From positions 4,075 through 68,074 of the forward strand of contig CAZPSE010000004.1 in the NCBI GenBank assembly GCA_964589575.1: a stretch of 64,000 nt of DNA. The letters run 5' to 3'. The position numbers were made by a program, and so were the translations under genes. How positions within the stretch are numbered: position 1 is the stretch's first letter; each line of letters starts with the position of its first letter. Source of the DNA: an uncultured Gammaproteobacteria bacterium. GTDB lineage: Bacteria > Pseudomonadota > Gammaproteobacteria > QNFE01 > CAZPSE01. Positions 570 through 53,729 of the stretch are shown in pieces. Under the pieces are notes generated by a model that worked only from the letters and a program-made list of their open reading frames with translations, was not told the origin of the DNA and ran no database searches.

Positions 570-834
570 AAGGAAGATTTGATTAACTGGATAAAGCATG
601 GTTAAAAGTTTAGCCTCGGTCACTATATAAGCACAGGTATTATATTAATAGCGCTAAGCCTTGCTTGTTCACAGCTTTATCGTGAACTAGCAAGGCTTAT
701 CAAGCGGGCTATTGGAGCATTAGCAGATAACGTTATCGCTTGCCGCTTGTAAGCCTCGCTAGTTTTGAAAAAGCACCAAAACGAGCAATGCTTAACGCTA
801 ATAATTTGCAGCTCCAGTTAATCAGACCTTCCTT
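570..834. mobile_element. MITE-like element, copy 1
   Basis: Imperfect 21-bp terminal inverted repeats (570-590 AAGGAAGATTTGATTAACTGG, 814-834 CCAGTTAATCAGACCTTCCTT), internal hairpins, homologous copy near 16543-16706. Confidence 0.65.
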
Positions 835-1721: not shown

Positions 1722-2393
1722 ATGCTTACCAAACCAGAGCTAATTTTAATCGACGTTGATGGAACATTAGTAGACAGTGTTCCCGATTTAGCCTATTGCG
1801 TAGATGAAATGCTAAAGCAATTAGCTATGCCAGTAAGGGGCATAAAAGCGGTAAGAGAATGGGTAGGTAACGGCGTAGAAACATTAACCAAACGTGCTTT
1901 AGTAAACGCGCTAACTGGCGAGCCAGATGCAGCATTATTTGCCAAAGCAATGCCCATATTTGATGCGTTATATGCAGTCAACAATTCTAAACGTAGCAAT
2001 TTATACCCAGGCGTTTTAGAAACATTAAAAGCCTTTAAAGCCGACCCAAGTTACCGCATAGGTTGCGTAACCAATAAAGATGCGCGTTTTACTATACCAA
2101 TACTAAAAGCTTTAGGCATTCATCACTTTTTTGAAATTATTGTTTGTGGCGATACTTTAACAAAAAAAAAGCCAGACCCCATGCCGTTATTACACGTCGC
2201 TAAAAAATTAGGCGTAAAGCCAAAAAATGCACTAATGTTAGGTGACTCTATGAGCGACGTAAAAGCCGCACGCGCAGCCGGTTTTAAAATAGTATGTATG
2301 AGCTATGGCTACAACCACGGCGAAGACATACGCGATTACAACCCAGATGCAGTAATAGACACCATGACCGAGTTCCACGCTCTAGTACAATAA
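1722..2393 (+). CDS. gph: Phosphoglycolate phosphatase (HAD family)
   Basis: DVDGTLVDS, VTNK, KKPDP, GDS motifs; follows rpe. Confidence 0.93.
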   Translation: MLTKPELILIDVDGTLVDSVPDLAYCVDEMLKQLAMPVRGIKAVREWVGNGVETLTKRALVNALTGEPDAALFAKAMPIFDALYAVNNSKRSNLYPGVLETLKAFKADPSYRIGCVTNKDARFTIPILKALGIHHFFEIIVCGDTLTKKKPDPMPLLHVAKKLGVKPKNALMLGDSMSDVKAARAAGFKIVCMSYGYNHGEDIRDYNPDAVIDTMTEFHALVQ

Positions 2394-2406
2394 AACGCAC
2401 ATACCT

Positions 2407-2460
2407 AAACCGTACCGAGCAAGGCTCGTAACGCGTTACGAGCCTTGCTCGGTACGGTTT
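2407..2460. repeat. REPIN-like perfect palindrome 1 (inverted REP doublet)
   Basis: 54-bp perfect palindrome with core GTACCGAGCAAGGCTCGTAAC-GC-GTTACGAGCCTTGCTCGGTAC. Confidence 0.9.
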
Positions 2461-2465
2461 TTAAG

Positions 2466-2493
2466 TTGCAAAACATTAAAAACCTGTTAAAAT
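2466..2493 (+). promoter_or_regulatory. Candidate sigma70 promoter for the DGR cassette
   Basis: TTGCAA (2466-2471), 16-bp spacer, extended -10 TGnTAAAAT (2485-2493). Confidence 0.45.
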
Positions 2494-2523
2494 AATTAAA
2501 AATTTTAGTTAGGCTATCGGTAA

Positions 2524-3951
2524 AATAAACCACAAAACCACAAAACCACAAAACCACAAAACCACAAAACCACAAAACCCCATCAATCCCAAGCTAAGTT
2601 TTTTTTTGCGTTAAGCTTTCTCTTTTTAACCGCGTGCGGCGGTTCTTCCGACTCTACTCCATCATCTACTAATACAGCACCCGTTGCGAATAGCCAAAAC
2701 ATAACAGTAGACGAAGATAACAATAGGGCAATAACCCTAAGCGCAACCGATTCTGATAACAATACCTTAAGCTATACCGTAATCACTCAACCAAGTAATG
2801 GTTCGCTAACAGGTACAGCGCCTAATTTAAGTTATACCCCAAATGCCGATTATAACGGTGCAGACAGTTTTACCTTTAAAGCTAATGATGGTACGGTAGA
2901 TTTTGCAACCGCAACAGTAAATATAAGCATTAACCCAATCGCAGACGTAAACCTAAGCAATGTTAGCCAAAACGAAGGCAGTAGTGGTACAACTACAGTA
3001 ACCTTTACGCTCACTTTAGATGCTTTTGAAAATACCGCCAGTGTTGATTATGCAACCCAAGACAATACCGCAATCGCTGCGAATAATGACTATGTAGCAA
3101 AAGCAGGTACCGTAACCTTTACGGGGGGTATAACCACACAAACCATTAGTATTACGGTTAATGGCGAGGGCACCGTAGAAGACGACGAAACCTTTACTTT
3201 AAACCTAAGCAACCCCAGTAATTTACAACTGGCTAACACCAGCGCCATTGCCACTATTAAAAATGATGATGCGCCAAGGTTAAACGACACAGGCATAACC
3301 TGGGCAGGGGGATACGCTGGTGGTAATAAAACTGGCAATGACTGCACCACAACAACCATTACCGGCAACCAAGACTGTCACCAAGGGCGCGACAGCACCA
3401 ATAATGACGACACCGACGGCATGGCAGGTTTTAGCTTTACCAAGCTAGATAATAATGCAGTAGCCTTAGCAGACCAAAGCCAAACCAACCACGTTTGTGT
3501 AAAAGACAAGATAACAGGGCTAATTTGGGAGGTAAAACAAACCACAGGCACACGCAGTAACACTACTAGATACCGTTGGGGTGGTTTAACGGCTATTGGC
3601 CGTAACCATGCCAGTAAAGAAGGCACATACTATGATGATTGGAATGTACTGATAAATTACGCAAACGATACCGATAATGCCAACACTACAGATAGTGCAT
3701 TATGTGGCTTTACCGACTGGCGTGTGCCAGATAGTGAAGAATTACGATCAATAGCCCATTTAGGTAAAAGCAACCCTGCGATCGATCAAAACTATTTTCC
3801 TAATACCAAAATAAATGATGGGTATTGGAGTTCGTCGCCCATTGCTAACAACTCTCACAATGCCTGGAGACTGAACTTTAACAGAGGCCATGACAGCGGT
3901 AACATTCGTAGCAATTACGATTATATGCGTTTAGTTAGAGGCGGACAGTGA
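2524..3951 (+). CDS. DGR target 1: lipoprotein with Ig-like (Big_9/cadherin-type) domain, Calx-beta domain and C-terminal DUF1566 (CLec-fold) domain; start codon unresolved
   Basis: Frame open from 2524 to stop at 3951, far upstream of the listed ATG 3421. Lipobox LTA-C (Cys 2635-2637), APVANSQ...YTPNADYNGADSFTF, VDYATQDNTA...ETFTLNLSNP, LNDTG, DWRVP..EL, YWSSS...RLVR motifs. No in-frame ATG/GTG/TTG before the lipobox. Confidence 0.85.
   Translation, partial: NKPQNHKTTKPQNHKTTKPHQSQAKFFFALSFLFLTACGGSSDSTPSSTNTAPVANSQNITVDEDNNRAITLSATDSDNNTLSYTVITQPSNGSLTGTAPNLSYTPNADYNGADSFTFKANDGTVDFATATVNISINPIADVNLSNVSQNEGSSGTTTVTFTLTLDAFENTASVDYATQDNTAIAANNDYVAKAGTVTFTGGITTQTISITVNGEGTVEDDETFTLNLSNPSNLQLANTSAIATIKNDDAPRLNDTGITWAGGYAGGNKTGNDCTTTTITGNQDCHQGRDSTNNDDTDGMAGFSFTKLDNNAVALADQSQTNHVCVKDKITGLIWEVKQTTGTRSNTTRYRWGGLTAIGRNHASKEGTYYDDWNVLINYANDTDNANTTDSALCGFTDWRVPDSEELRSIAHLGKSNPAIDQNYFPNTKINDGYWSSSPIANNSHNAWRLNFNRGHDSGNIRSNYDYMRLVRGGQ
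2530..2577 (+). repeat. Simple sequence repeat (CCACAAAA)6
   Basis: Six exact 8-bp units; a T9 tract follows at 2599-2607. Confidence 0.97.
3823..3951 (+). repeat. DGR variable repeat VR1
   Basis: Aligns to TR with 10 mismatches at TR adenines and 2 at non-A positions; has 15 nt absent from TR. Confidence 0.92.
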
Positions 3952-3964
3952 TTTAATTTTTATT

Positions 3965-4332
3965 ATGTCAAATTATCAAAACATTCCTATCTTGCGTGAT
4001 GCACGCCTAATGATGGTTGAAGTAGAACGGACTGTAAAAGACTTTCCTCGTTATCATAAATACACCATGGGCAGTGAATTAAGAAAAAAAGCCATGGATA
4101 TTTATCAGTTTGTTAGCCGTGCCATACAATATAAGCATACCCGTGCAAAATGGGTGCAACATTTAATGCTTGCGATAGATGATTTTAAATGCCAAATACA
4201 AATAGCCAAATAGCCAAAGAGCTGAAAGTATTTAAAAGCTTTAAACAGTTTGAATTATTAGCCAAATACAGCCTTGCTTTAAGCAAACAAAGCAAAAGCT
4301 GGTTGCAAAAAATAGGTGCAACCCATGGCTAG
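3965..4332 (+). pseudogene. avd: DGR accessory variability determinant (Avd-like four-helix bundle), disrupted
   Basis: FPRYHKYTMGSELRK motif; position between VR1 and TR; 8-bp duplication TAGCCAAA (4203-4218) creates TAG at 4211; removing one unit restores a 119-aa ORF ending at 4332. Confidence 0.85.
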
Positions 4333-4358
4333 CCCAGTTGTAACGTCAACAGCCCGTA

Positions 4359-4401
4359 AAAATAGGGTTGTTAAAATAATCTATTTTAACAACCCTATTT
4401 T
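4359..4401. other. Perfect 20-bp hairpin between avd and TR
   Basis: AAAATAGGGTTGTTAAAATA-ATC-TATTTTAACAACCCTATTTT. Confidence 0.85.
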
Positions 4402-4507
4402 GTGTGCTGATTTCACTGTGCTCCCCAAACACCTGCTTGCAGGTAATAGTGAGCAAACCTACTACGTAAAAATTGTGGGTAAGCGTTTAAGTTTTGGGGT
4501 TAAACAT

Positions 4508-4621
4508 CATTGGAGTTCGTCGCCCAATGCTAACAACTCTAACAATGCCTGGAAACTGAACTTTAACAACGGCAATGACAACAATAACAATTATATGCGT
4601 TTAGTTAGAGGCGGAAAGTGA
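4508..4621 (+). repeat. DGR template repeat TR
   Basis: AAC/AAT-rich copy of the VR1/VR2 sequence; differences fall almost only at its adenines; lies between avd and RT. Confidence 0.93.
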
Positions 4622-5253
4622 AGCAGTGTGTTAGCTATAAAAGTTTGTATTGTGCATGGCAAACTTGCCGTAAAGGTAAAAGTGCAGGCACGCAAGCACA
4701 AATGTACGAAGCAAACGTGCTAGAAAACTTACATAACACACAACAGCTAATGGCAACCATGGCAAGCTATTATGGCCATGTGGCTCACGCTAAGTATTAC
4801 CGTCAAACAATGGCTATATTTAAACAATATTATTACTTGTCGTACTTATATCACCCTATCAACATAAAAAATAAGGGTTTAAAACCTTGCATAACCCCCC
4901 TGCAAGTTACAGGGTTTAAGGCGCAATGTTATTATTTTAGCCAAAGTATTAATGGCTATGCAGCACTTACCTTAATACAAAAAGGCTATTTATTGGTAGT
5001 AAGTAGTAATGATGCACAAATAATAAGCCCTATTTTTGTACGGCAAGCTAAAAAAATAACCCAAAAGCAGTTTTCTTACCCATTAAAAAGTTGGGCTTTA
5101 ATAAGGCAGCAGTTACTTAACAATAATTTAAGTTATCAATTTATAACAGAGCAGGGTTATTTAAAAGGCGGGTTAAAAAAACGTGTACTAAAAGAACTCT
5201 TTATAAACAACCATCAAATAAACCCCATATGGAGTGACAATGCCCCAAAGTAA
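4618..5253 (+). pseudogene. DGR reverse transcriptase remnant: N-terminus joined in frame to the C-terminal region, catalytic core absent
   Basis: SLYCAWQTCRKGK...YEANVLENL resembles DGR RT N-termini; SYYGHVAHA resembles their C-terminal motif; no YxDD; only 211 aa. Confidence 0.75.
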
Positions 5254-5761
5254 AACGATAATAATTTTAATGGTACTAAGCAGTGTTTTAAGCAGTACAG
5301 CACAGGCACAAACCATAAAAAACTATATAGATAACCAATGGAAAAACAGCCGTTACACTAACCATAATGACGCTACCGTAACAGACACCAAAACAGGCTT
5401 AATGTGGAAACAATGTGTAGAAGGTTTAACCGGCAATACGTGTGGTACAGGCACTGCAGTTACCACCTACACTTGGAAGGCTGCGCTAGAGTTAGCCAGT
5501 AGTACCACTTTTGCCACTTATAGCGATTGGCGGCTACCTAACATTAAAGAACTGGCAAGCCTAGTAGCGCGCGATCGTTATAGCCCTGCCATTAATAGTA
5601 GCCTTTTCCCTAATACGCCAAGTATCCGTCATTGGAGTTCGTCGCCCGCCGATGCTGGCGGCTCTGACGGTGCCTGGGGACTGAACTTTGAGCGCGGCGT
5701 TGACAGCGGTGACGATCGTATCAATGACTATTGGATGCGTTTAGTTAGAGGCGGACAGTGA
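5240..5761 (+). CDS. DGR target 2: secreted DUF1566 (Lcl C-terminal, CLec-fold) protein
   Basis: GGAG RBS before ATG 5240; signal peptide; VTDTKTGLMWKQC, DWRLPNIKEL, HWSSS...RLVRGG motifs; ends in VR2. Confidence 0.9.
   Translation: MPQSKTIIILMVLSSVLSSTAQAQTIKNYIDNQWKNSRYTNHNDATVTDTKTGLMWKQCVEGLTGNTCGTGTAVTTYTWKAALELASSTTFATYSDWRLPNIKELASLVARDRYSPAINSSLFPNTPSIRHWSSSPADAGGSDGAWGLNFERGVDSGDDRINDYWMRLVRGGQ
5630..5761 (+). repeat. DGR variable repeat VR2
   Basis: Aligns to TR with 22 mismatches at TR adenines, 2 at non-A positions, a 3-nt insertion and the same 15-nt extra segment as VR1. Confidence 0.92.
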
Positions 5762-5776
5762 TTTAATTTTTATTTT

Positions 5777-5830
5777 TACCCCGTACCGAGCAAGGCTCGT
5801 AACGTTACGAGCCTTGCTCGGTACGGGGTA
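5777..5830. repeat. REPIN-like perfect palindrome 2
   Basis: 54-bp perfect palindrome with the same REP core, lacking the central GC. Confidence 0.9.
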
Positions 5831-5847
5831 TTTTGTTATGCTAAAGC

Positions 5848-6513
5848 ATGTCTGTTAGAAAAATCACTTTTGTTAATGATGGCTATTACCATGTTTTTAA
5901 CCGTGGGGTAGATAAACGCGTTGTTTTTACCGATAGAGATGAGTTAAATTTTTTCTTAAACCGATTGAGTGATTTAAATAGCGTGGATACTTCGAACGCT
6001 TTAAAGAGTAAACGCTATAGGTTAAAGGGCGAACTTGCCCTTGCAGATACTGAAAAGTTGGTTAGTATTGTGGCTTATTGTGTTTTGCCTAATCATTTTC
6101 ATTTATTGTTAAAACAAAAAACAGACGATGGCATTAGTAAGTTTATGCAAAGGCTTGGTACGTCTTATGTGCATTTTTTTAATAAAAAACATCAGCGTTT
6201 GGGCAGTTTGTTTCAGGGTAAGTTTAAAGCTACGGCTTTAAATGGCGATTATGCTTTGGCAAAAGTTGCTAGTTACGTTAATTTAAATTTTAAGCATCAT
6301 CGTATTGACCCCAAAAAGAATATAGTTAAGTCGAGCATGGCTGAATATATTGCGCTTAATGTAGAAAACCCTATTTGTGATAGCCAAGAAATTAGCAATA
6401 TTATTGATGAGGTGGGTGGTGTAAGCCAATATAAAGAAATGGCAAAAAGTGCATCTATTGTTTTTGCCAGTAATAAAAGCACAAGTCTTTCTGAAAAAGA
6501 TTTCGAATTTTAA
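5848..6513 (+). CDS. REP-associated tyrosine transposase (RAYT/TnpA-REP, Y1 HUH family)
   Basis: YYHVFNRG, AYCVLPNHFHLLL (HUH), FQGKFK and YVNLN (catalytic Tyr position) motifs; palindromes on both sides. Confidence 0.88.
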   Translation: MSVRKITFVNDGYYHVFNRGVDKRVVFTDRDELNFFLNRLSDLNSVDTSNALKSKRYRLKGELALADTEKLVSIVAYCVLPNHFHLLLKQKTDDGISKFMQRLGTSYVHFFNKKHQRLGSLFQGKFKATALNGDYALAKVASYVNLNFKHHRIDPKKNIVKSSMAEYIALNVENPICDSQEISNIIDEVGGVSQYKEMAKSASIVFASNKSTSLSEKDFEF

Positions 6514-6517
6514 CTGC

Positions 6518-6563
6518 CGTACCGAGCAAGGCTCGTAACGCGTTACGAGCCTTGCTCGGTACG
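6518..6563. repeat. REPIN-like perfect palindrome 3
   Basis: 46-bp perfect palindrome identical to the core of palindrome 1, 4 bp after the RAYT stop. Confidence 0.9.
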
Positions 6564-6735
6564 AGGTTTTTGTGGTTAATAGCCTTTTTTGTGGCTATAA
6601 TCCGTTTCATTATTTTATTGGTTTTTTTTATGGTTTTTCTTTTTCAATTTTGGCGATGGCAATTTTAGAAAGCTCGTGTTTGCTAACACGCAAAATTGTT
6701 ACGTTTATTAAAAAGATTGGTTGAGAAATATCATT

Positions 6736-8241
6736 ATGAATGAAGAAAAGTTTAATCGTTTAATCGCTCAAGATTATTCGCACATTCCTTTAGTTCGCGC
6801 AGTCCTTGCCGATTTAGATACCCCTTTAAGCGCTTATTTAAAAGTAGCCAACGCTGCTAACAGTTATTTGTTTGAATCTGTTCAGGGTGGTGAAAAATGG
6901 GGGCGTTATTCCATTATTGGTCTGCCTTCTAAAACCGTTATTAAGGTTAATAAACACCGTATAACGATAGAAGAAGATGGTGTAGAGGTGCAAGGGGTCG
7001 ACGAAAATGACCCTTTAGCGTGGATTGAAAATTATCAAAAACAATTTGCTGTGCCAGAAATTGAAGGCTTAGATGTACTGGCCGGTGGTTTGGTTGGTTA
7101 TTTTGGTTACGATATTATTGGTTACATTGAACCCAAGCTTGCCAAGTTTGATAAAGACGATAGCGTGAATACGCCAGACATTATGTTGATGGTGAGTGAC
7201 CGCGTAATTGTTTTTGATAACCTTAGTGGTAAATTATATATCGTCGCTTATACCAATAAAGAACACGGTTATCAAAAAGGGGTGGACGAGTTAGACCGCA
7301 TTGAGCAATTGCTTGCTACAACAATTATTAGTAACGCAAATACAAAACAAGCTACTGGCGTAAGTGAAAAGGATTTTGTATCGGGCATTACTGAGCAAGG
7401 TTATAAAGACGCGGTTGATAAAGCGCGACAATATATTATTGATGGCGATGTGATGCAAGTAGTGTTATCACAGCGTTTGAGTGTTAAGTTTGATGCTGAA
7501 CCGATTGATTTGTATCGCGCATTGCGCTGTTTAAACCCGTCGCCTTATATGTATTTTATGAATATGGACGGGTTTCATATTGTGGGTTCATCGCCAGAAA
7601 TTTTGGTTCGTTTACAAAATAATCAGGTGACGGTAAGGCCCATTGCAGGAACCCGTCCTCGTGGCAAAACAGAATTAGAAGATAAAGCATTAGAGGCTGA
7701 ACTGTTAGCCGACCCGAAAGAGTTGGCGGAGCATTTAATGTTAATAGATTTAGGCCGAAACGATGCCGGCAGAGTAAGCAATACCGGTACGGTAAAACTA
7801 ACCGACAAAATGCTGGTAGAGCGTTACTCTCATGTTATGCATATTGTGTCTAACGTAACGGGTGACTTAAAAAAAGACCTAAGTGCGATAGATGTTTTAC
7901 GTGCAACCTTCCCCGCAGGTACAGTAAGTGGCGCACCTAAAGTACGTGCAATGGAAATAATAAATGAGCTAGAGCCTAGCAAACGTGGTGTTTATTCGGG
8001 CGCGGTGGGTTATTTGTCTTTTAATGGCGATATGGACGTGGCCATTGCGATTCGTACTGCAGTAATAAAAGATAACGAGCTAACCATACAAGCAGGTGCG
8101 GGTATCGTTTACGACTCTGTAGCGCAAAGTGAATGGGACGAAACCATGAATAAGGCGAGGGCGGTTATTAAAGCGGCAGAAATAGCATCGAACGGATTAA
8201 AACAACAGTCGCACTTAAACATTAAAGGGGTGAAAGCATGA
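6736..8241 (+). CDS. trpE: Anthranilate synthase component I
   Basis: [37 protein letters not shown] motifs; ATG 6736 preferred over TTG 6721. Confidence 0.96.
6991..7002 (+). repeat. Dispersed 12-mer CAAGGGGTCGAC; other copies at 10687(-), 18225, 26996(-), 32924, 36110, 44906, 48530(-), 52989, 61212
   Basis: At least ten exact copies found by eye. Confidence 0.9.
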
Positions 8242-8816
8242 TTTTAATGATTGATAATTATGATTCATTTACCTATAACCTAGTGCAGTACATGGCAGAA
8301 TTGGGTGCGGATGTACTGGTAAAAAGAAATGATGAAATCACTTTAGAAGAAGTGATTGCTTTAGCACCAAAAAAAATAGTTTTGTCGCCTGGCCCGTGTG
8401 CGCCAAACCAAGCAGGTATTTCCTTATCGGTTGTAGAAAAGTTGTCGGGTAAAATCCCATTATTAGGCGTGTGTTTAGGGCATCAAACAATTGGCCAAAC
8501 TTTTGGTGGCGACATTGTGCATGCCAGTAAAATTATGCACGGCAAAACCTCGCCCATTCATCATAAAAATACAGGTGTATTTAAAGGTTTAAGCAATCCG
8601 TTTATTGCTACGCGTTATCATTCGTTAGTGATAGATAAAAACACCTTGCCAAGTTGTTTAGACATTACCGCTTGGACAGAAAACGAAAAGGGAAAAATGG
8701 AAGAAATTATGGGTGTAAGGCATAACACTTTAGACGTGGAAGGGGTGCAGTTTCACCCAGAATCTATCCTTACGGAACACGGACACGATTTGCTTAAAAA
8801 CTTTTTAGATCGTTAA
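8238..8816 (+). CDS. trpG: Anthranilate synthase component II (glutamine amidotransferase)
   Basis: [29 protein letters not shown] motifs. Confidence 0.96.
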
Positions 8817-8833
8817 TCGCCAGGAAAATTATT

Positions 8834-9856
8834 ATGAATATCCAACAAGCCATTCAGTCGGTATTAGATAAAAAAGACTTGTCGCAAGATGAGATGTTTG
8901 CCGTAATGAAAATAATCATGACAGGGGACGCAACACCGTCTCAAATTGGTGGCTTTTTAATTGGTTTAAGAATGAAAGGTGAAACGGCCGACGAAATAAC
9001 GGCCGCCGCCAGCGTGATGCGAGAGCTGTCTACCAAGGTAGATGTAAAGGGCGATTATTTGGTCGATACCTGTGGCACGGGTGGTGATGCGTCTGGAACG
9101 TTTAACATATCTACCGTTAGCGCAATTGTAGCGGCGGCGGCTGGCGCGCAAGTAGCTAAGCATGGTAATCGTTCGGTCTCTAGCAAATCGGGCAGTGCAG
9201 ACGTTTTAGAGCGTTCTGGTGTTAATTTAAATTTGTCGGCAAAACAAGTAGCAAAATGCGTAGCAAAACTGGGCGTGGGTTTTATGTTTGCACCGCTACA
9301 CCACAGCGCAATGAAACACGCCATAGGCCCACGTAAAGAAATGGCAGTAAGAACCATTTTTAATTTATTAGGGCCACTTACCAACCCTGCAACTGCACCT
9401 AATCAAGTATTAGGTGTGTTTGACAAGCAGTGGGTAGAACCCATGGCACAAGTATTAAAATCATTAGGCAGCAACCACGTAATGGTGGTTAATGCAGAAG
9501 ACGGATTGGATGAAATAAGTATTGCGGCTAATACCACCGTTGCCGAATTAAAAAATGGAAGCATCACAACCTATACCCTCAACCCAAAAGATTACGGTTT
9601 TGAAAAATCGTCTTTAGCGGGTTTAAAAGCAAAAGATTCTGAAGCCAGTTTAGCGATAATTAATCAGGTTTTAAATAATGTGGATGGCGCAGCTAAAGAT
9701 ATAGTCGCTTTAAATGCAGGGGCCGCCATATATGTATCTGGTTTGGTTGAAAACTATCAACAAGGCATAGATAAAGCGATAGAAGTTATTGCCAATGGTC
9801 AGGCTAAAGCCACATGGCATGGTCTTGTTGCATTAACCAACTCTATGAAAGCTTAA
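8834..9856 (+). CDS. trpD: Anthranilate phosphoribosyltransferase
   Basis: DTCGTGGD, KHGNRSVSSKSGSAD motifs. Confidence 0.97.
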   Translation: MNIQQAIQSVLDKKDLSQDEMFAVMKIIMTGDATPSQIGGFLIGLRMKGETADEITAAASVMRELSTKVDVKGDYLVDTCGTGGDASGTFNISTVSAIVAAAAGAQVAKHGNRSVSSKSGSADVLERSGVNLNLSAKQVAKCVAKLGVGFMFAPLHHSAMKHAIGPRKEMAVRTIFNLLGPLTNPATAPNQVLGVFDKQWVEPMAQVLKSLGSNHVMVVNAEDGLDEISIAANTTVAELKNGSITTYTLNPKDYGFEKSSLAGLKAKDSEASLAIINQVLNNVDGAAKDIVALNAGAAIYVSGLVENYQQGIDKAIEVIANGQAKATWHGLVALTNSMKA

Positions 9857-10659: not shown

Positions 10660-10743
10660 ACAATATGCCTAAAAAGGGGCTAAATTGTCGACCCCTTGCT
10701 AATAAATTAGTGGTTAATAAAGTAACTAAAGTAGCGCTTAAAT

Positions 10744-11379
10744 TTAACGAGTACCAAAAATAACCATGGTTTTACCATGTGCAGTAATTAATTTTTGCTG
10801 CACTAACTCTTTTAAAACTCTACCCACCATCTCACGCGAACAACCAACAATACGGGCAATTTCTTGGCGAGTTACCTTAATTTGCATGCCGTCAGGGTGA
10901 GTCATTGCATCGGGCTCTTTGCATAACTCAAGCAATGTATGGGCTACTCGACCGGTAACATCTAAAAAGGCTAGGTCTCTAACTTTGTCATTGGTTTTTC
11001 TTAGGCGAGAAGCTAATTGAGAGGCCAGTGCAAAAATGACCTCTAAATTTGATTCTGCGACTTTTTTAAATTGATTGTAAGTGATTTCTGCCAGTTCACA
11101 TTCTGTTTTAGCAACAACCCAGGCGCTTCGTTGGGTATCTTCATCAAACAATCCCATCTCACCAAAAAACTCACCTTTGTTTAGGTAGGTTAATATCATT
11201 TCATGGCCCTCTTCGTCTTCTAAAACAACACTAACAGAGCCGTTAATGATGTAATAAAGCGATTCTGAATTGTCGCCTTCGTGAATAATGGTGCTTTTGG
11301 CAGAATAATGCTTTTTATGGCTGTTACGTAAGAGTTCTGTTGTCCAAGCTACTGAATCTTGTTTTTGTATTAAGGCCAT
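10744..11379 (-). CDS. crp: cAMP receptor protein (Crp/Vfr)
   Basis: [40 protein letters not shown] motifs. Confidence 0.95.
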
Positions 11380-16542: not shown

Positions 16543-16706
16543 TAAAGAATAACTGGGTAGAGCATGGTTAAAAGTTTAATTTCGGTCACTGTATAAGCAT
16601 TGGCATTATACTAATAGCGCTAAGCCTTGCTAGTTTTGAAAAAGCACAAAAAAGAGCAATGCTTAACGTTAATAGTTTGAAAACATTAGTTAATCAGGTC
16701 TTCCTT
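16543..16706. mobile_element. MITE-like element, copy 2 (internal deletion, eroded left end)
   Basis: Homologous to 570-834 but lacks the 95 bp between the direct repeats TAAGCCTTGCT/TAAGCCTCGCT; right end TAGTTAATCAGGTCTTCCTT retained. Confidence 0.65.
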
Positions 16707-49399: not shown

Positions 49400-50114
49400 A
49401 TTAGCGTTAATAACCCCCAACTGGCCAGCGCCTAAAAATATAAAAGCCATAAGCACCACCATTTACGGTGGCAAAAGCCAAGGCAACTACGCAACGTTAA
49501 ACCTAGCAGACCACGTAAAAGATAACCCCGCACACGTAGCCAAAAACAGAACGATACTAGAAAAACAACTCAACCTATCACTAAACACCAGTTGGTTAAA
49601 CCAAACGCACAGCAACAAATGGCAAGCCATGCCAGACACCAAAAAAAATAATGCCGATGCCAGCTACACCCAGCAAAGCCAAACCCCATGCAGTGTATTA
49701 ACTGCAGACTGCGTACCCATACTGTTTTGTAATAAACAGGGGGGCTTTGTAGCTGCCGTACATGCAGGTTGGCAAGGCGTGTTTAACGGCATAACTAAAA
49801 AAATAAAAGACATCTACCCAAACACCCACGAGCTAATGGCATGGATAGGCCCCTGCATAAAACAAAACAGCATGGAAGTAAGCGACGACTTTTATAATGA
49901 CTTTATAAAGCAAGATGCCCATTTTAAAAACGCCTTTGTCAAAAAAGACAAATGGCACTTCGACATGGTCGCCGCCACCAAAATGCAACTGCAAGCGGTA
50001 GGTGTAACCGCAATATACGGTGGTGACTATTGCACCTATAGCGACGAACAGTTTTTTTCATTTAGGCAAAATAGTGTAACGGGGCGCATAGCAACAATGG
50101 TATGGATTGACTAA
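49380..50114 (+). CDS. pgeF: PgeF/YfiH family protein
   Basis: LNLADHVKD, LTADCVPIL, AVHAGW, FFSFR motifs; follows rluD. Confidence 0.92.
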   Translation: MTLKKNELALITPNWPAPKNIKAISTTIYGGKSQGNYATLNLADHVKDNPAHVAKNRTILEKQLNLSLNTSWLNQTHSNKWQAMPDTKKNNADASYTQQSQTPCSVLTADCVPILFCNKQGGFVAAVHAGWQGVFNGITKKIKDIYPNTHELMAWIGPCIKQNSMEVSDDFYNDFIKQDAHFKNAFVKKDKWHFDMVAATKMQLQAVGVTAIYGGDYCTYSDEQFFSFRQNSVTGRIATMVWID

Positions 50115-50126
50115 AGATTATTTTGA

Positions 50127-50342
50127 ATAAGATTACGTAAAGAAGGGAAAAAGCATCTACAAACTTTAGCAAAAGCGACGGGTAGAACAAAATCATTCTA
50201 CATAAATAAACTGGTAGAAAATGGTATTGAAGCGCTAGAAGGTGTTTATTTGTCTGAACGAGTATTAGAAAAAATTAGAGCAAGAAAAGAAAGCGTTTAT
50301 AGCTTGAGTGAAGTGGAGCAAACTCTTGAACTGGATAATTAA
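50127..50342 (+). pseudogene. RelB/TraY-like ribbon-helix-helix antitoxin, 5' end lost
   Basis: Manual translation IRLRKEGKKHLQTLAKATGRTKSFYI...SLSEVEQTLELDN; in-frame TGA immediately upstream, no start codon. Confidence 0.7.
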
Positions 50343-50523
50343 TTTTGCAGAAACGGCTTTAAAACAACTGAAAAAATAGATAAAACGGCCTCAATTAAAA
50401 TAGTTAAGTATTTAAAAAAACATGTAGTTGAACATGGAAAACCTTACCAAATTGGAAAACAACTAAAAGCCAACTTAAGTGAATTATGGCTATATAGAAT
50501 AGGAGATTACCGAATTATTTGTG
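50326..50523 (+). pseudogene. RelE/StbE toxin, frameshifted and 3'-truncated
   Basis: TTG 50326 NWIINFAETALKQLKK, then a frameshift in an A6 tract to IDK...LWLYRIGDYRIIC; C-terminal VGHR..VY part missing. Confidence 0.75.
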
Positions 50524-50541
50524 GGGAAGGGTTTGTCTTTG

Positions 50542-50736
50542 TTATAGACGTTTGTCGCTTAAACCAGCTTGTTTTAACACTGCGTTTGCGGTGTGGCGTG
50601 ATTTACAGTTTTTAGGTACCGTAATTGCATTTTTACCTGTTTTAAACCAAACTTGATGTGAGCCTTTGCCTGATCTAATGTTTTTCCAGCCATCATTTTT
50701 TAATAGTTTTTTTACTGCTTTTTCAAAGCCATTCAT
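50542..50736 (-). CDS. HicA family toxin
   Basis: GW..IRSGKGSH, ITVP, VLKQAGL motifs; 64 aa. Confidence 0.88.
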   Translation of the reverse strand: MNGFEKAVKKLLKNDGWKNIRSGKGSHQVWFKTGKNAITVPKNCKSRHTANAVLKQAGLSDKRL

Positions 50737-51011
50737 GCAACCGCTAAATGGTCTGTAAAGATAACGTCAGCAGATGGTTTTTTTATTAAAAATTCTGGGT
50801 AGTTTAGTTCTAATAAGGCAGGTATTGCATCTTCGGACTCTTTGATTATTTCATCAAATGTTTTAGCTTCTAAAACCAGCCCTGTAATGTCTTGGCTTGT
50901 AGCAACGTATACGTTGGCTTCTTTATCGTGAATAACGTCTATTTTCATTGTTATGGTTGCGCCTAAACGCGATAACAATAATGATGCAGGGTATCTTAAT
51001 GGGTAATTCAT
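50733..51011 (-). CDS. DUF1902/HicB-like antitoxin
   Basis: D.EANVYVATSQDITGLVLEA.TFDE motif; stop overlaps the hicA start. Confidence 0.8.
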   Translation of the reverse strand: MNYPLRYPASLLLSRLGATITMKIDVIHDKEANVYVATSQDITGLVLEAKTFDEIIKESEDAIPALLELNYPEFLIKKPSADVIFTDHLAVA

Positions 51012-51296
51012 AATTTTAATTTCATTTTTGGGCTGAACATATAATCAATATAATAGCATTATTGTAGTTTTCTACATAATATATCTTATTTATTTAAGTG
51101 TTTTTTGTTTCAAGAAAGTTAAAAACTCGCTATTTTTGTTAAAATAAATAGGTGTGACTAGATTCAGAAAAATTGATGTTTTTTATTAATAGAAATGGTT
51201 CCCTTTAATATTGTTACATGATTGTTCTACCTTACCCTATCGCTCTCCAGATAGGAGAGGGAATAGCGACTGATAGTATTATTAACATGTTTCGAC

Positions 51297-51315
51297 ACGA
51301 GCCTTGCTCGTAACG
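51297..51315. repeat. Solo REP-like remnant
   Basis: ACGAGCCTTGCTCGTAACG shares the CGAGC-CTT-GCTCG hairpin and TAACG of the palindromes at 2.4-6.6 kb. Confidence 0.6.
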
Positions 51316-51393
51316 ATTGTTGGGTTTTAATTAAAGCGGTTGCTTTTGGTGGCGATATTGCTAATATAAATGTATGACAAGTAAGACAAAGAG

Positions 51394-51609
51394 GTGGTTA
51401 TGCTTTCAGTAAGGCTAGATGCAAAAACAGAGCAATTTTTAGAGAACATTGCGAGTGAAACTCAGCGGTCTAAAAGTTTTTTTGTTAAAGAAGCATTAAA
51501 AAATTATATGGACGATATGCAAGATTATTACGATGCAAAATTAAGAACAGATGATGATAAGCGCAACTTAATTTCGTTAAGTGAACTGGAAAAAGCACTT
51601 GGCATATAA
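51394..51609 (+). CDS. RelB/TraY-like ribbon-helix-helix antitoxin
   Basis: MLSVRLD...RSKSFFVKEAL...ISLSELEKALGI; paralog of 50127-50342. Confidence 0.85.
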   Translation: MVMLSVRLDAKTEQFLENIASETQRSKSFFVKEALKNYMDDMQDYYDAKLRTDDDKRNLISLSELEKALGI

Positions 51610-51856
51610 ATTAGTTTTTGATGACAAGGTTATTAAAGACTTTAAAAAAATAGATAAACAGTGGCAAATAAAAATACTAAATGTCATTAAACAAAAGCTG
51701 GTTTTAAATCCCTATTCAGGGAAAAAATTAGTGGGTGATTTATCTTCTTTCTATCGGTTAAGCGTTGCTAATTATCGTGTTATTTACCAAATTTTAAAAA
51801 ATGAACTGATTGTTACCATTATTAAAGTTAGGCACCGCAAAGAGGTATATAAATAA
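51599..51856 (+). CDS. RelE/StbE family toxin
   Basis: GKKLVGDL..YRLSVANYRVIY...KVRHRKEVY motifs; TTG 51599 preferred. Confidence 0.88.
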   Translation: MAYKLVFDDKVIKDFKKIDKQWQIKILNVIKQKLVLNPYSGKKLVGDLSSFYRLSVANYRVIYQILKNELIVTIIKVRHRKEVYK

Positions 51857-51947
51857 TGAGGCAAACGTGTAGTATTTTTATCGTTTTTATGAATTACAAA
51901 AAACATTAAGGTACACTTAAAACTCTTTATTTATGAAATGAATAATC

Positions 51948-52193
51948 ATGTTTAGCAATCAATTTTTCGAGCAAGTATCGGCCAATATTCAAAAAGTAAT
52001 CCCTGCAGATTTAGGCGTTATTAAAGCCGACATTGAAACTGTTATACGGGTAGAAATGATGGCACTTTTAGAAAAAATGGATTTAGTCACCCGTGAAGAG
52101 TTTGATATACAAACAGCCGTTTTACTAAAAACCCGCAAAAAGCTAGAAACCCTAGAAGAACAAGTTAAACAAATACAAACCCAACTAAAGTAA
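51948..52193 (+). CDS. ubiK: Accessory factor UbiK (BMFP family)
   Basis: KMDLVTREEFDIQ..VL.KTR..LE.LE motif; precedes comM. Confidence 0.85.
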   Translation: MFSNQFFEQVSANIQKVIPADLGVIKADIETVIRVEMMALLEKMDLVTREEFDIQTAVLLKTRKKLETLEEQVKQIQTQLK

Positions 52194-53729
52194 ATGCCTT
52201 ACGCCAAGGTTTTTACCCGTGCTATAAAAGCGATGGACGCACCACAGGTAGAGGTGGAGGTACATATATCGGGCGGTTTACCGGGTTTGTCTATTGTTGG
52301 TTTGCCAGAGGCTGCTGTAAAAGAAAGCAAAGACCGTGTACGTGCGGCCATTTTAAATTCTCATTTCGAGTTCCCAGCCGCCAGAATCACCATTAATTTA
52401 GCCCCTGCAGATTTACCCAAACAAGGCGGACGGTACGATTTGCCCATAGCAATAGGTATATTAATTGCCAGCGGTCAGTTACAGGGCGACAAAATAGAGC
52501 AGTACGAACTATTGGGCGAGCTGTCTTTAACGGGCGATTGCCGTTTTGTACCGGGGGTTATATCTGCCATTATGGCGGCCAGTGATAATAAAAAAACTGC
52601 TATTGTGCCAAAAAGTAATGAGCAAGAAGCGGCGTTAATGGACGATAGCGAAACCTTATTGGCGCAATCATTATTGGGTGTTTGTGCATTTTTAAATGGT
52701 GATGGTAAATTGGCCAGTGCAGAGCCTTTTTTGCATGGTGAGGCAGAAACTTGCCATTTAGACTTTGCCGATGTAAAAGGGCAAAGCCGAGTAAAACGCG
52801 CCTTAGAGGTGGTAGCGTCGGGCGGGCATCATTGCCTTATGGTGGGTGCGCCCGGTAGCGGCAAATCTATGTTGGCGAGTCGGTTACCGTCTATTTTACA
52901 ACCGCTTACGTCTAAAGAGGCGATAGAAACGGCCGCTGTTTATTCAATAAGTGACGTGGTTGGTGGCGCAAGTAAACAAAGTAATGACCAAGGGGTCGAC
53001 GTTTTAGGCATAAAAACCCGTCCTTTTAGAAGCCCGCATCACACCATTTCGTCTGCCGCTTTGGTGGGTGGCAGTTCTATCCCAACCCCTGGGGAAATAT
53101 CGCTTGCCCATAATGGCGTTTTGTTTTTAGATGAGTTGCCCGAGTTTGACAGAAAAGTATTGGAAGTATTGCGCGAGCCGTTAGAAAGTAAAAAAGTTAC
53201 CGTGTCACGCGCCAGCCAAAAGGCAGAGTTTCCTGCCAAGTTTCAGCTTATTGCCGCTATGAACCCTTGCCCCTGCGGATTTTTAGGCGACGCTAAAAAA
53301 GCCTGTAAATGTACGCCGCAACAAGTGGATAGGTACCGCGCAAAACTGTCTGGCCCTTTTTTAGACCGCATAGACGTGCAAATAGAAGTACCGCGAGTAC
53401 CAACAGAAGAATTAAAAAATGCGACACCATCTGACGCATCTAAAAAAATTAAACAACGGGTAAAAATAACGCAAGCTAAACAGTTGGCAAGGCAAAATAA
53501 ATTAAATACCGACTTAACGCCTAAAGAAGTCGAACAATATTGTGCTATTGATGAAATGGCAGAAAAAATGTTATTCATCGCGATGGAAAAGTTTGCCTTG
53601 TCTACCCGTGTATACCATCGCTTATTAAAAGTATCGCGCACTATTGCAGACATGGACAATTGCGACAACATTAACGCCACCCATATTAGCGAAGCGTTAA
53701 GTTACCGTTTTTTTGACCGCCAAGGTTAA
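52194..53729 (+). CDS. comM: ComM/YifB Mg-chelatase-like AAA+ ATPase
   Basis: NLAPADLPKQG, GAPGSGKS, RPFRSPHH, LFLDELPEF, AMNPCPCG motifs. Confidence 0.93.
   Translation: MPYAKVFTRAIKAMDAPQVEVEVHISGGLPGLSIVGLPEAAVKESKDRVRAAILNSHFEFPAARITINLAPADLPKQGGRYDLPIAIGILIASGQLQGDKIEQYELLGELSLTGDCRFVPGVISAIMAASDNKKTAIVPKSNEQEAALMDDSETLLAQSLLGVCAFLNGDGKLASAEPFLHGEAETCHLDFADVKGQSRVKRALEVVASGGHHCLMVGAPGSGKSMLASRLPSILQPLTSKEAIETAAVYSISDVVGGASKQSNDQGVDVLGIKTRPFRSPHHTISSAALVGGSSIPTPGEISLAHNGVLFLDELPEFDRKVLEVLREPLESKKVTVSRASQKAEFPAKFQLIAAMNPCPCGFLGDAKKACKCTPQQVDRYRAKLSGPFLDRIDVQIEVPRVPTEELKNATPSDASKKIKQRVKITQAKQLARQNKLNTDLTPKEVEQYCAIDEMAEKMLFIAMEKFALSTRVYHRLLKVSRTIADMDNCDNINATHISEALSYRFFDRQG

Follow-up and report, generated by a model that had tools for sequence, protein, structure and literature searches.

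The stretch analysed here, referred to as the window, comprises 64,000 nt of contig CAZPSE010000004.1 (positions 4,075 to 68,074) of an uncultured gammaproteobacterium. Between the gph and trpE genes of this window lies a block in which a diversity-generating retroelement (DGR) and a gene encoding a REP-associated tyrosine transposase (RAYT; REP, repetitive extragenic palindrome) stand among three palindromes, P1, P2 and P3. The order of the block is P1, a first DGR target gene (T1), avd, the template repeat (TR), the reverse transcriptase (RT) gene, a second target gene (T2), P2, the RAYT gene and P3, and each of these features had been placed correctly in an original prediction made from the sequence alone (Table 1). 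The prediction further proposed that the DGR is cargo of the REP/RAYT system. This is mostly contradicted by the related loci, which largely point to independent insertion of the two elements. On the basis of these comparisons the RAYT module probably inserted by itself beside an old DGR, after which REPIN-like doublets (two close inverted REP units forming one long hairpin) were copied locally. The DGR is evidently a dead fossil, so that nothing active would be carried in the block. The original prediction knew of no description of such a coupling, and a literature search likewise found no paper on a coupling of RAYT/REPIN and DGR.

RAYT and DGR loci in other genomes

Eighty RAYT loci were fetched from the representative genomes of the genome collection. 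No relative of the window DGR is present at 78 of them. L005, which belongs to the L001 lineage described below, is the only locus of the 80 with DGR components directly beside the RAYT gene, and at L009 a remnant of T2 type is found 7 kb upstream of RAYT. The closest RAYT relatives with readable context, a set that leaves out P0002 (73% identity) and P0005 (63%), are P0003 (71%) and P0004 (67%). Each has its own flanking palindromes with the core described in the next section, arranged as REPIN-RAYT-REPIN after a terminator-like hairpin (P0003) or after coaBC (P0004), and no DGR sequence or variable repeat (VR) was found in the 154-449 nt at hand upstream of these two RAYT genes. At the P0004 locus (L090, 380-450) coaBC runs with its 3' end into the upstream REPIN, and its stop codon is inside the palindrome. 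The five members of the RAYT clade with readable context occupy four different contexts. As P0003 and P0004 are free of DGRs and the five members lie in four contexts, the REPIN-RAYT-REPIN module appears to relocate by itself. In a neighbour-joining tree of the RAYT proteins, ((P0002,P0004),(P0001,P0003)),P0006, those adjacent to a DGR and those free of one appear interleaved.

Relatives of the DGR were likewise found on their own. Three loci (L172-L174) are orthologues of the window fossil, with 68-78% nucleotide identity at window positions 3280-4316 and 5129-5777. They contain neither RAYT nor REPIN, their TR and most of their RT are gone, and their avd genes are broken in other ways than the avd of the window. 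The homology with the window ends at 5777, which is the left edge of P2. L085/L086 encode an intact RT of 497 aa, L088 is another intact DGR of the same type, and in L175 (a 1.82-Mb genome; 9440-10000) T1, an avd stub and T2 closely precede the rpsJ operon and an RT is absent; none of these loci has a RAYT gene. Because the homology of L172-L174 stops at P2 and L085/L086, L088 and L175 lack RAYT, the DGR is separable from RAYT. Decay of this DGR type, by RT deletions, TR loss and broken avd with both targets remaining open, was seen independently in several lineages (L001, L172-L174, L175).

The region 3' of T2 holds an IS4-like DDE element and an rve element in L172 and IS110 in L173, and these two loci, elsewhere 89-98% identical, diverge approximately 43 nt past the T2 stop codon. 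A restriction-modification system occupies the same position in L085, and RAYT with VapBC in L001. These insertions suggest that the flank downstream of T2 is a permissive site or hot spot for mobile or accessory DNA.

The order T1-avd-TR-RT-T2-REP-RAYT-REP was found once more, at a different insertion site. L001 is a JGI contig of 184 kb, and its locus was also assembled from other samples, including an NCBI 'Thiotrichaceae' metagenome-assembled genome (MAG; L003/L005). The L001 RAYT (P0006) is 64% identical to the window RAYT; MurA, HisG and HisD of the two organisms are 66-69% identical. The RAYT gene is located directly 3' of an Ig-like/Lcl_C target, avd, TR, RT and an Lcl_C target, and the block stands between a Na/Ca-exchanger gene (yrbG) and VapBC/mlaF; we take yrbG and mlaF to be normally a tight divergent pair, as in the E. 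coli arrangement. Co-occurrence of DGR and RAYT outside the window, which the original prediction had proposed to look for, thus exists in one lineage (L001/L003/L005), but not at the large majority of RAYT loci. The L001 DGR is closest to that of L085/L086 (Avd 70%, T2 60%, T1 64% and RT 51% identity), compared to 41-48% identity with the window DGR. An internal deletion is present in its RT as well (305 aa, residues ~57-217 missing), and its TR has an 18-nt indel. The L001 RT (8360-9277) retains YADD and is without motifs 1-3.

Cognate REPs in L001 (CTCCCAAGC-CTT-GCTTGGGAG) flank the RAYT gene only. No cognate REP was found upstream of the L001 DGR, and the palindromes there belong to other families. 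The region between the Na/Ca-exchanger gene and target 1 (L001, 5500-5912) contains nested palindromic elements resembling miniature inverted-repeat transposable elements from at least two other families, among them perfect arms of 30 nt at 5532-5561 and 5595-5624, together with CGTTACCACGC-AGC-GCGTGGTAACG units. A third, 5'-truncated VR (10730-10899) is located 3' of the L001 RAYT gene. Its mismatches to the TR are nearly all at adenines and it is followed by the same 35-nt flank as VR2, so that the RAYT gene stands between two VR 3' ends.

The block of the window had no match in plasmids or phages, and nothing was found when viral contigs were searched with RT and RAYT profiles. A whole element with the same ends was not found elsewhere in the window, in metagenome contigs (by the 21-nt arm), or in plasmids or phages; no palindrome scan was made of the genome collection.

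The RAYT gene, its palindromes and the insertion site

The RAYT protein matches the Pfam family PF01797 with 36.6 bits (cut-off 23). Its best NCBIfam match is REP_Tyr_transpos ('REP-associated tyrosine transposase'; 1.9e-10, 40.8 bits), below the curated cut-off of 80, and PDB sequences gave no match at E <= 0.01. In an alignment of 25 homologues the HUH motif (H83-F-H85) and Tyr143 are invariant. The 1922 homologues found are mostly from SUP05/Thioglobus-type gammaproteobacteria, and several have been named RayT by JGI. Homologues of the clade with 37-57% identity (L040-L084) are frequent in MAGs of Patescibacteria (candidate phyla radiation, CPR) and also occur in a Woesearchaeota MAG; for a gene that is supposed to be domesticated, this distribution is broad and patchy.

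The palindromes are 47-54 nt long, and their arm, GTAC-CGAGC-AAG-GCTCG-TAAC, folds into a small hairpin, on the 5' side of which stands a tetranucleotide resembling GTAG. The 23-nt arm occurs six times in the window, each time within P1, P2 or P3 and nowhere in the other 60 kb, and not once in 100 shuffles; the palindromes are therefore far beyond chance. As a 21-mer the arm had no match in the metagenome contigs. DNA folding of P1-P3 gave -28 to -33 kcal/mol with z-scores of -9.7 to -12.2 (P1: -32.1 kcal/mol, z -11.5). With two close inverted REP units in one long hairpin, the palindromes have the structure of REPINs. A 9-nt core, AGCAAGGCT, is present 11 times in the window, where 0.59 occurrences are expected. 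P2 and P3 stand as REP hairpins in inverted orientation on both sides of the RAYT gene, and hairpins with the same core are found on both sides of the RAYT homologues of L001, L008, L009, L010, L017, L089 and L090. Because the core also flanks these related RAYTs, the palindromes are predicted to be REPIN-like doublets cognate to RAYT, and RAYT with P2 and P3 to be a REPtron-like module of a divergent clade. A run of T follows each of P1, P2 and P3, and all three score as terminator-like; the hairpins probably also serve as terminators for gph, T2 and RAYT.

Exact hairpin units number seven, at four loci, in the 64 kb, and a second subfamily of doublets occurs at two loci. The region of approximately 2 kb around the singleton REP (50114-52194) contains no open reading frame (ORF) of at least 100 aa and has no Rfam hit. 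A conserved GTAG 5' of the REP was not found; the hairpin is preceded by GTAC, and by GTTA on the other strand. GTAC matches GTAG at three of four positions, and some RAYTs are reported to tolerate variation in the tetranucleotide (PMC8266576).

Like the REPtrons described in E. coli K-12, Stenotrophomonas, Marinomonas and Pseudomonas (PMC3333891, PMC8266576), the module combines a Y1 HUH protein having the HUH motif and catalytic Tyr with inverted REP doublets that border the gene on both sides, extra REPs close to the gene and terminator-like hairpins, and each REP is a short hairpin after a GTA-type tetranucleotide. It differs from them in that the RAYT, of 221 aa, belongs to a divergent clade whose members come mainly from SUP05/Thioglobus-type gammaproteobacteria and Patescibacteria, in its tetranucleotide (GTAC or GTTA instead of GTAG), in doublets that lack a spacer and are thereby perfect palindromes, in the low number and scatter of REP units given above, and in the position of one REPIN beyond a 3.3-kb gene cassette.

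The gph-trpE interval of the window spans 2394-6720. P1 starts 13 nt past the gph stop codon, and a trp leader peptide ORF is located 66 nt beyond P3. Since this leader is kept after P3, the original intergenic region resumes there, and together with the position of P1 this delimits the inserted DNA as P1 through P3, 4157 nt in total. A TrpE scan of metagenome contigs recovered relatives at 61-69% identity. In approximately 40 of these, rpe, gph and trpE form an uninterrupted series with gph and trpE 12-352 nt apart, and not one of the ~40 spacers contains a RAYT gene or a DGR. The comparison with empty sites that had been proposed to check the prediction thus gave empty sites in these relatives, and the block from P1 to P3 is a clean insertion. 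The spacers of the relatives encode a leader peptide of trp with W-R-W at its end (TGGCGATGG). The W-R-W leader ORF upstream of trpE (window, L092-L155) corresponds to no Rfam family at the gathering threshold; the Rfam scan of the window returned one tRNA only. In two relatives (L099 and L155) the gph-trp spacer holds unrelated palindromic inserts. Base composition and GC content at third codon positions (GC3) of the block differed too little from the flanks to point to a foreign origin, and a search for a target-site duplication or common flank at P1 and P3 gave nothing convincing except the palindromes themselves.

Table 1. Positions of the block, its components, its neighbours and further REP-like sequences in the window.
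Feature	Position	Strand	Description
REPIN-like doublet, second subfamily (AATAGCGCTAAGCCTTGCT...)	651..706	.	Intact, intergenic; core AGCAAGGCT in common with P1-P3
gph (HAD-family phosphoglycolate phosphatase)	1722..2393	+	Pfam HAD_2, 3e-33; left neighbour of insert
P1 palindrome	2407..2460	.	Two inverted REP units (REPIN-like doublet); 27+27 nt, 100% complementary, no spacer
T1, DGR target 1	2524..3951	+	Open frame, lipoprotein-type; lipobox LTAC; Big_9/Cadherin-like, Calx-beta and Lcl_C (CLec-type) domains
8-nt tandem repeat AAACCACA x6.6, then T9 run	2527..2579	+	TRF; just 5' of target-1 signal peptide
VR1	3822-3951	+	C-terminal end of target 1
avd pseudogene	3965..4332	+	Open as 3965-4213; stop at 4211-4213
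Perfect inverted repeat, 20+20 nt (AAAATAGGGTTGTTAAAATA / TATTTTAACAACCCTATTTT)	4359..4401	.	Between avd and TR
TR	4507..4621	+	15 nt short relative to both VRs
RT remnant, 211 aa	4618..5253	+	N-terminal 47 residues fused to thumb and C-terminal extension
T2, DGR target 2	5234..5761	+	Secreted Lcl_C protein, 175 aa
VR2	5629-5761	+	C-terminal end of target 2
P2 palindrome	5777..5830	.	As P1, without two central nt (CG)
RAYT (TnpA_REP-type Y1 HUH transposase), 221 aa	5848..6513	+	Intact; Pfam Y1_Tnp PF01797
P3 palindrome	6517..6563	.	Right end of insert; 100% identical to P1 across 47 nt
trp leader peptide ORF (MVFLFQFWRWQF*)	6630..6668	+	Native; W-R-W motif conserved in relatives' gph-trpE spacers
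trpE	6721..8241	+	Synteny; right neighbour of insert
Degenerate relative of second REPIN-like subfamily	16616-16670	.	Intergenic
Singleton REP (CGAGC-CTT-GCTCG)	51297..51311	.	Hairpin as in P1-P3 arms

The decayed DGR cassette

Both targets contain an Lcl_C domain (PF07603; 6e-28 and 6e-33), and the VRs are their last ~43-44 codons. The VRs thus lie at the C-terminus of a domain that is of the C-type lectin (CLec) type by its Lcl_C sequence matches. The 13 nt past the T2 stop codon are identical to the 13 nt past VR1. Between TR and VR1 there are 12 mismatches, nine of them at TR adenines, and between TR and VR2 there are 22, of which 20 are at TR adenines. This mismatch pattern shows past adenine-directed mutagenesis: the TR/VR relation is real, and mutagenic retrohoming took place in the past.

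The 211-aa RT ORF has no match to RVT_1. Its alignment to full-length relatives of ~480-530 aa is confined to residues 1-47, corresponding to their residues ~1-60, and residues 42-196, corresponding to ~331-466. Approximately 280 internal residues are deleted, including the whole catalytic palm with YxDD, and no other RT was found within the window; the intact catalytic RT expected of a DGR is thus missing. The avd product is Avd-like, with 41-44% identity to the Avd of intact relatives and a match to NCBIfam DivGenRetAVD at 5.5e-5, below the cut-off. It ends after 82 aa owing to a tandem duplication of 8 bp (AAATAGCC, ~4200-4215). Removal of one copy of the duplication restores an Avd of 119 aa, the C-terminus of which matches intact Avd proteins. 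Both VR1 and VR2 contain 15 nt that are missing from the TR. In target 1, no in-frame ATG, GTG or TTG occurs from the stop codon at 2521 to position 3421. With the RT palm deleted, a frameshift in avd, an indel in the TR and T1 without a start codon, the DGR is evidently inactive, a dead fossil as judged from its sequence. The DGR named in the original prediction is therefore present as far as the adenine pattern and the targets are concerned, but it is not intact.

The 5' region of T1 with its repeat (2527-2609) has no start codon upstream in any frame. A short tandem repeat in this position is found in both lineages: AAACCACA x6.6 followed by T9 in the window, and GCACCCC x6-7 in L001 (5978-6026). 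Both repeats stand immediately before the signal-peptide core (AK-hydrophobic-...-C), and the L001 repeat is in frame from a TTG start. The repeat may reflect slipped-strand phase variation of the target lipoprotein, or T1 may be a pseudogene. The perfect inverted repeat between avd and TR is possibly an avd terminator or an element of the TR RNA. P2 was considered as a hairpin or cruciform required downstream of a VR, and this was rejected: VR1 was diversified without such a structure, and the RAYT-less orthologues have no P2.

The types of Legionella LdtA and Treponema TvpA are DGRs whose diversified products are CLec-fold lipoproteins or secreted proteins. The window DGR shares with CLec-target DGRs and with the two-target Lcl_C family (L085, L088) an adenine-specific TR/VR relation, an Avd-like gene, and VRs at the Lcl_C/CLec C-terminus, and its order T1-avd-TR-RT-T2 is identical to that of the intact DGRs of L085 and L088. 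Unlike these, it is decayed, with comparable decay in L001, L172-L174 and L175. The elements of the block are new representatives of known kinds, namely a divergent RAYT/REPIN clade and an Lcl_C-target DGR.

Origins of the arrangement

The history that we consider probable starts with a DGR of a widespread gammaproteobacterial type, T1 - avd - TR - RT (~500 aa) - T2 with Lcl_C/CLec-type targets, which once diversified the ligand-binding pockets at the C-termini of both targets via adenine-directed mutagenic retrohoming. The RAYT module would have inserted by itself downstream of T2, after the arrival of the DGR and possibly after its death. By analogy with TnpA_REP, RAYT would bind a single-stranded REP hairpin together with its 5' guide tetranucleotide (GTAC or GTTA), cut and rejoin it, and REP doublets would be copied in trans into extragenic sites, preferentially nearby ones. 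P1 would then be one more copy of the REPIN, placed in the closest extragenic gap that was free. As the cassette is compact with little internal intergenic space, the nearest gaps are gph|T1, T2|RAYT and RAYT|trp, and REPINs filling these three gaps would result in 'exact bracketing' of the DGR without a functional link. The bracketing emphasized in the original prediction holds in the window, where P1 and P3 bound the insert exactly, but not in L001, where the far side of the DGR has no cognate REP. In Marinomonas, REPs are concentrated near tnpA_REP, which Corneloup et al. interpreted as local multiplication (PMC8266576).

Several observations weigh against this history. RAYT stands directly 3' of T2, on the same strand, in two lineages and at two clean insertion sites (gph|trpE and yrbG|mlaF). 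Such a recurrence is very improbable if RAYT inserts uniformly, so that a strong hot-spot or targeting bias is needed, and only a few loci provide evidence for such a bias. Over 47 nt P1 and P3 do not differ, and both lie exactly at the ends of the block; a transposase-bounded unit would look alike. No intermediate gph-trpE spacer, with RAYT only or DGR only, was seen in any relative, all of which have at most ~69% TrpE identity, and the REPIN counts refer to the 64-kb window and not to the whole genome.

These observations bear on the alternative that P1-P3, or T1 to RAYT, moved as one piece at least once, either by RAYT action on the outer REP hairpins (an IS200/IS605-like 'peel and paste' in which the DGR would be carried along) or by recombination between identical REPINs, after which the DGR decayed and, in other lineages, RAYT was lost or departed. 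The identical palindromes at the ends with the native trp leader directly resuming after P3, the empty sites in the relatives, the second locus of the same order at another site, the grouping of both DGR-adjacent RAYTs in one clade and a RAYT identity similar to the housekeeping identity between the two hosts are in line with such a composite unit, and proximity of Y1 transposases to DGR variable proteins has been described from cyanobacteria (PMC7517822). However, no second copy of the block or its palindrome was found in the window or the metagenome contigs, nor a match in plasmids, phages or viral contigs, and the L001 DGR has no upstream cognate REP. The nearest relatives of the two DGRs (L085 for L001, L172-L174 for the window) all lack RAYT, and the nearest relative of the window RAYT, P0003, lacks a DGR. 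This interleaving of coupled and uncoupled relatives requires at least four losses under this alternative, compared to two gains under independent insertion, and transposition of REPtrons as a unit has not been observed (PMC3333891). We therefore regard movement as one piece as unlikely. That the REPIN doublets flanking the cassette are the ends of a RAYT-mobilised composite, by which the whole DGR was carried into gph-trp and a related block into yrbG-mlaF, is quite unlikely, and catalysis by RAYT as the route of a composite movement is very unlikely. The resemblance to IS200/IS605 elements with passengers extends to the Y1 HUH enzyme and to hairpins at both ends of a multi-gene segment; unlike in those elements, which have a distinct left and a distinct right end, the ends are identical self-complementary doublets. 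Moreover, no second copy was found and no target-site signature was recognised.

The recurrence 3' of T2 could also be explained if RAYT/REPIN modules, and perhaps Y1 HUH transposases generally, are drawn to sites just downstream of DGR VRs, by hairpin or cruciform structure or by single-stranded exposure during retrohoming, in which case the DGR would not be cargo. The two apparently independent RAYT insertions lie 16 and 37 nt past the T2 stop codon, the L001 RAYT stands between two copies of the VR 3' end with its 35-nt flank, and IS200/IS605 transposases have been reported as the most widespread ones near cyanobacterial DGR variable proteins (PMC7517822). Such attraction is nevertheless decidedly doubtful: the presence of non-Y1 elements (IS4-like, IS110, rve, restriction-modification) in the same flank suggests that it is generally permissive and not specific to Y1 enzymes, 78 of the 80 RAYT loci have no DGR nearby, VR1 has no palindrome on its 3' side, and the sample is small. 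A chimera joined through the 47-nt identical P1/P3, with a true order gph-REPIN-trp and the DGR and RAYT elsewhere between REPINs, was considered as well. A block bounded by identical repeats in a conserved spacer is the expected product of a repeat-induced mis-join, but repeats of 47-54 nt are shorter than ordinary reads and large assembler k-mers and are normally resolved, and independent assemblies from several samples contain the corresponding locus of L001, so that an assembly artefact is highly improbable.

Associations of related enzymes with hypervariable gene families have been reported in cyanobacteria, where IS200/IS605 transposases lie near DGR variable proteins (PMC7517822) and TnpA_REP genes are co-localised with prochlorosin genes in picocyanobacteria (bioRxiv 10.1101/2020.03.09.984088). 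A role in dispersal was proposed in these cases, and the proximity of a Y1/TnpA_REP enzyme to variable genes resembles the arrangement studied here. They differ from it in that they concern IS200/IS605 or procA and not a DGR bounded by RAYT/REPIN, and in that our comparative data oppose co-mobility.

In the current view RAYTs are domesticated and immobile, and do no more than copy REPs. If the DGR were cargo of a REPtron, RAYTs would be able to move genes, this would be the first REPtron with cargo, and the spread of chromosomal DGRs without a phage or plasmid backbone would be explained. The evidence points the other way, and the single recurrence of DGR and RAYT is the one observation that is still worth a wider survey. 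What the comparisons document is a divergent RAYT/REPIN clade whose gene and REPIN module change location between relatives, and Lcl_C-target DGR cassettes that decay repeatedly while their target genes are retained and the flank of the second target gathers mobile DNA.

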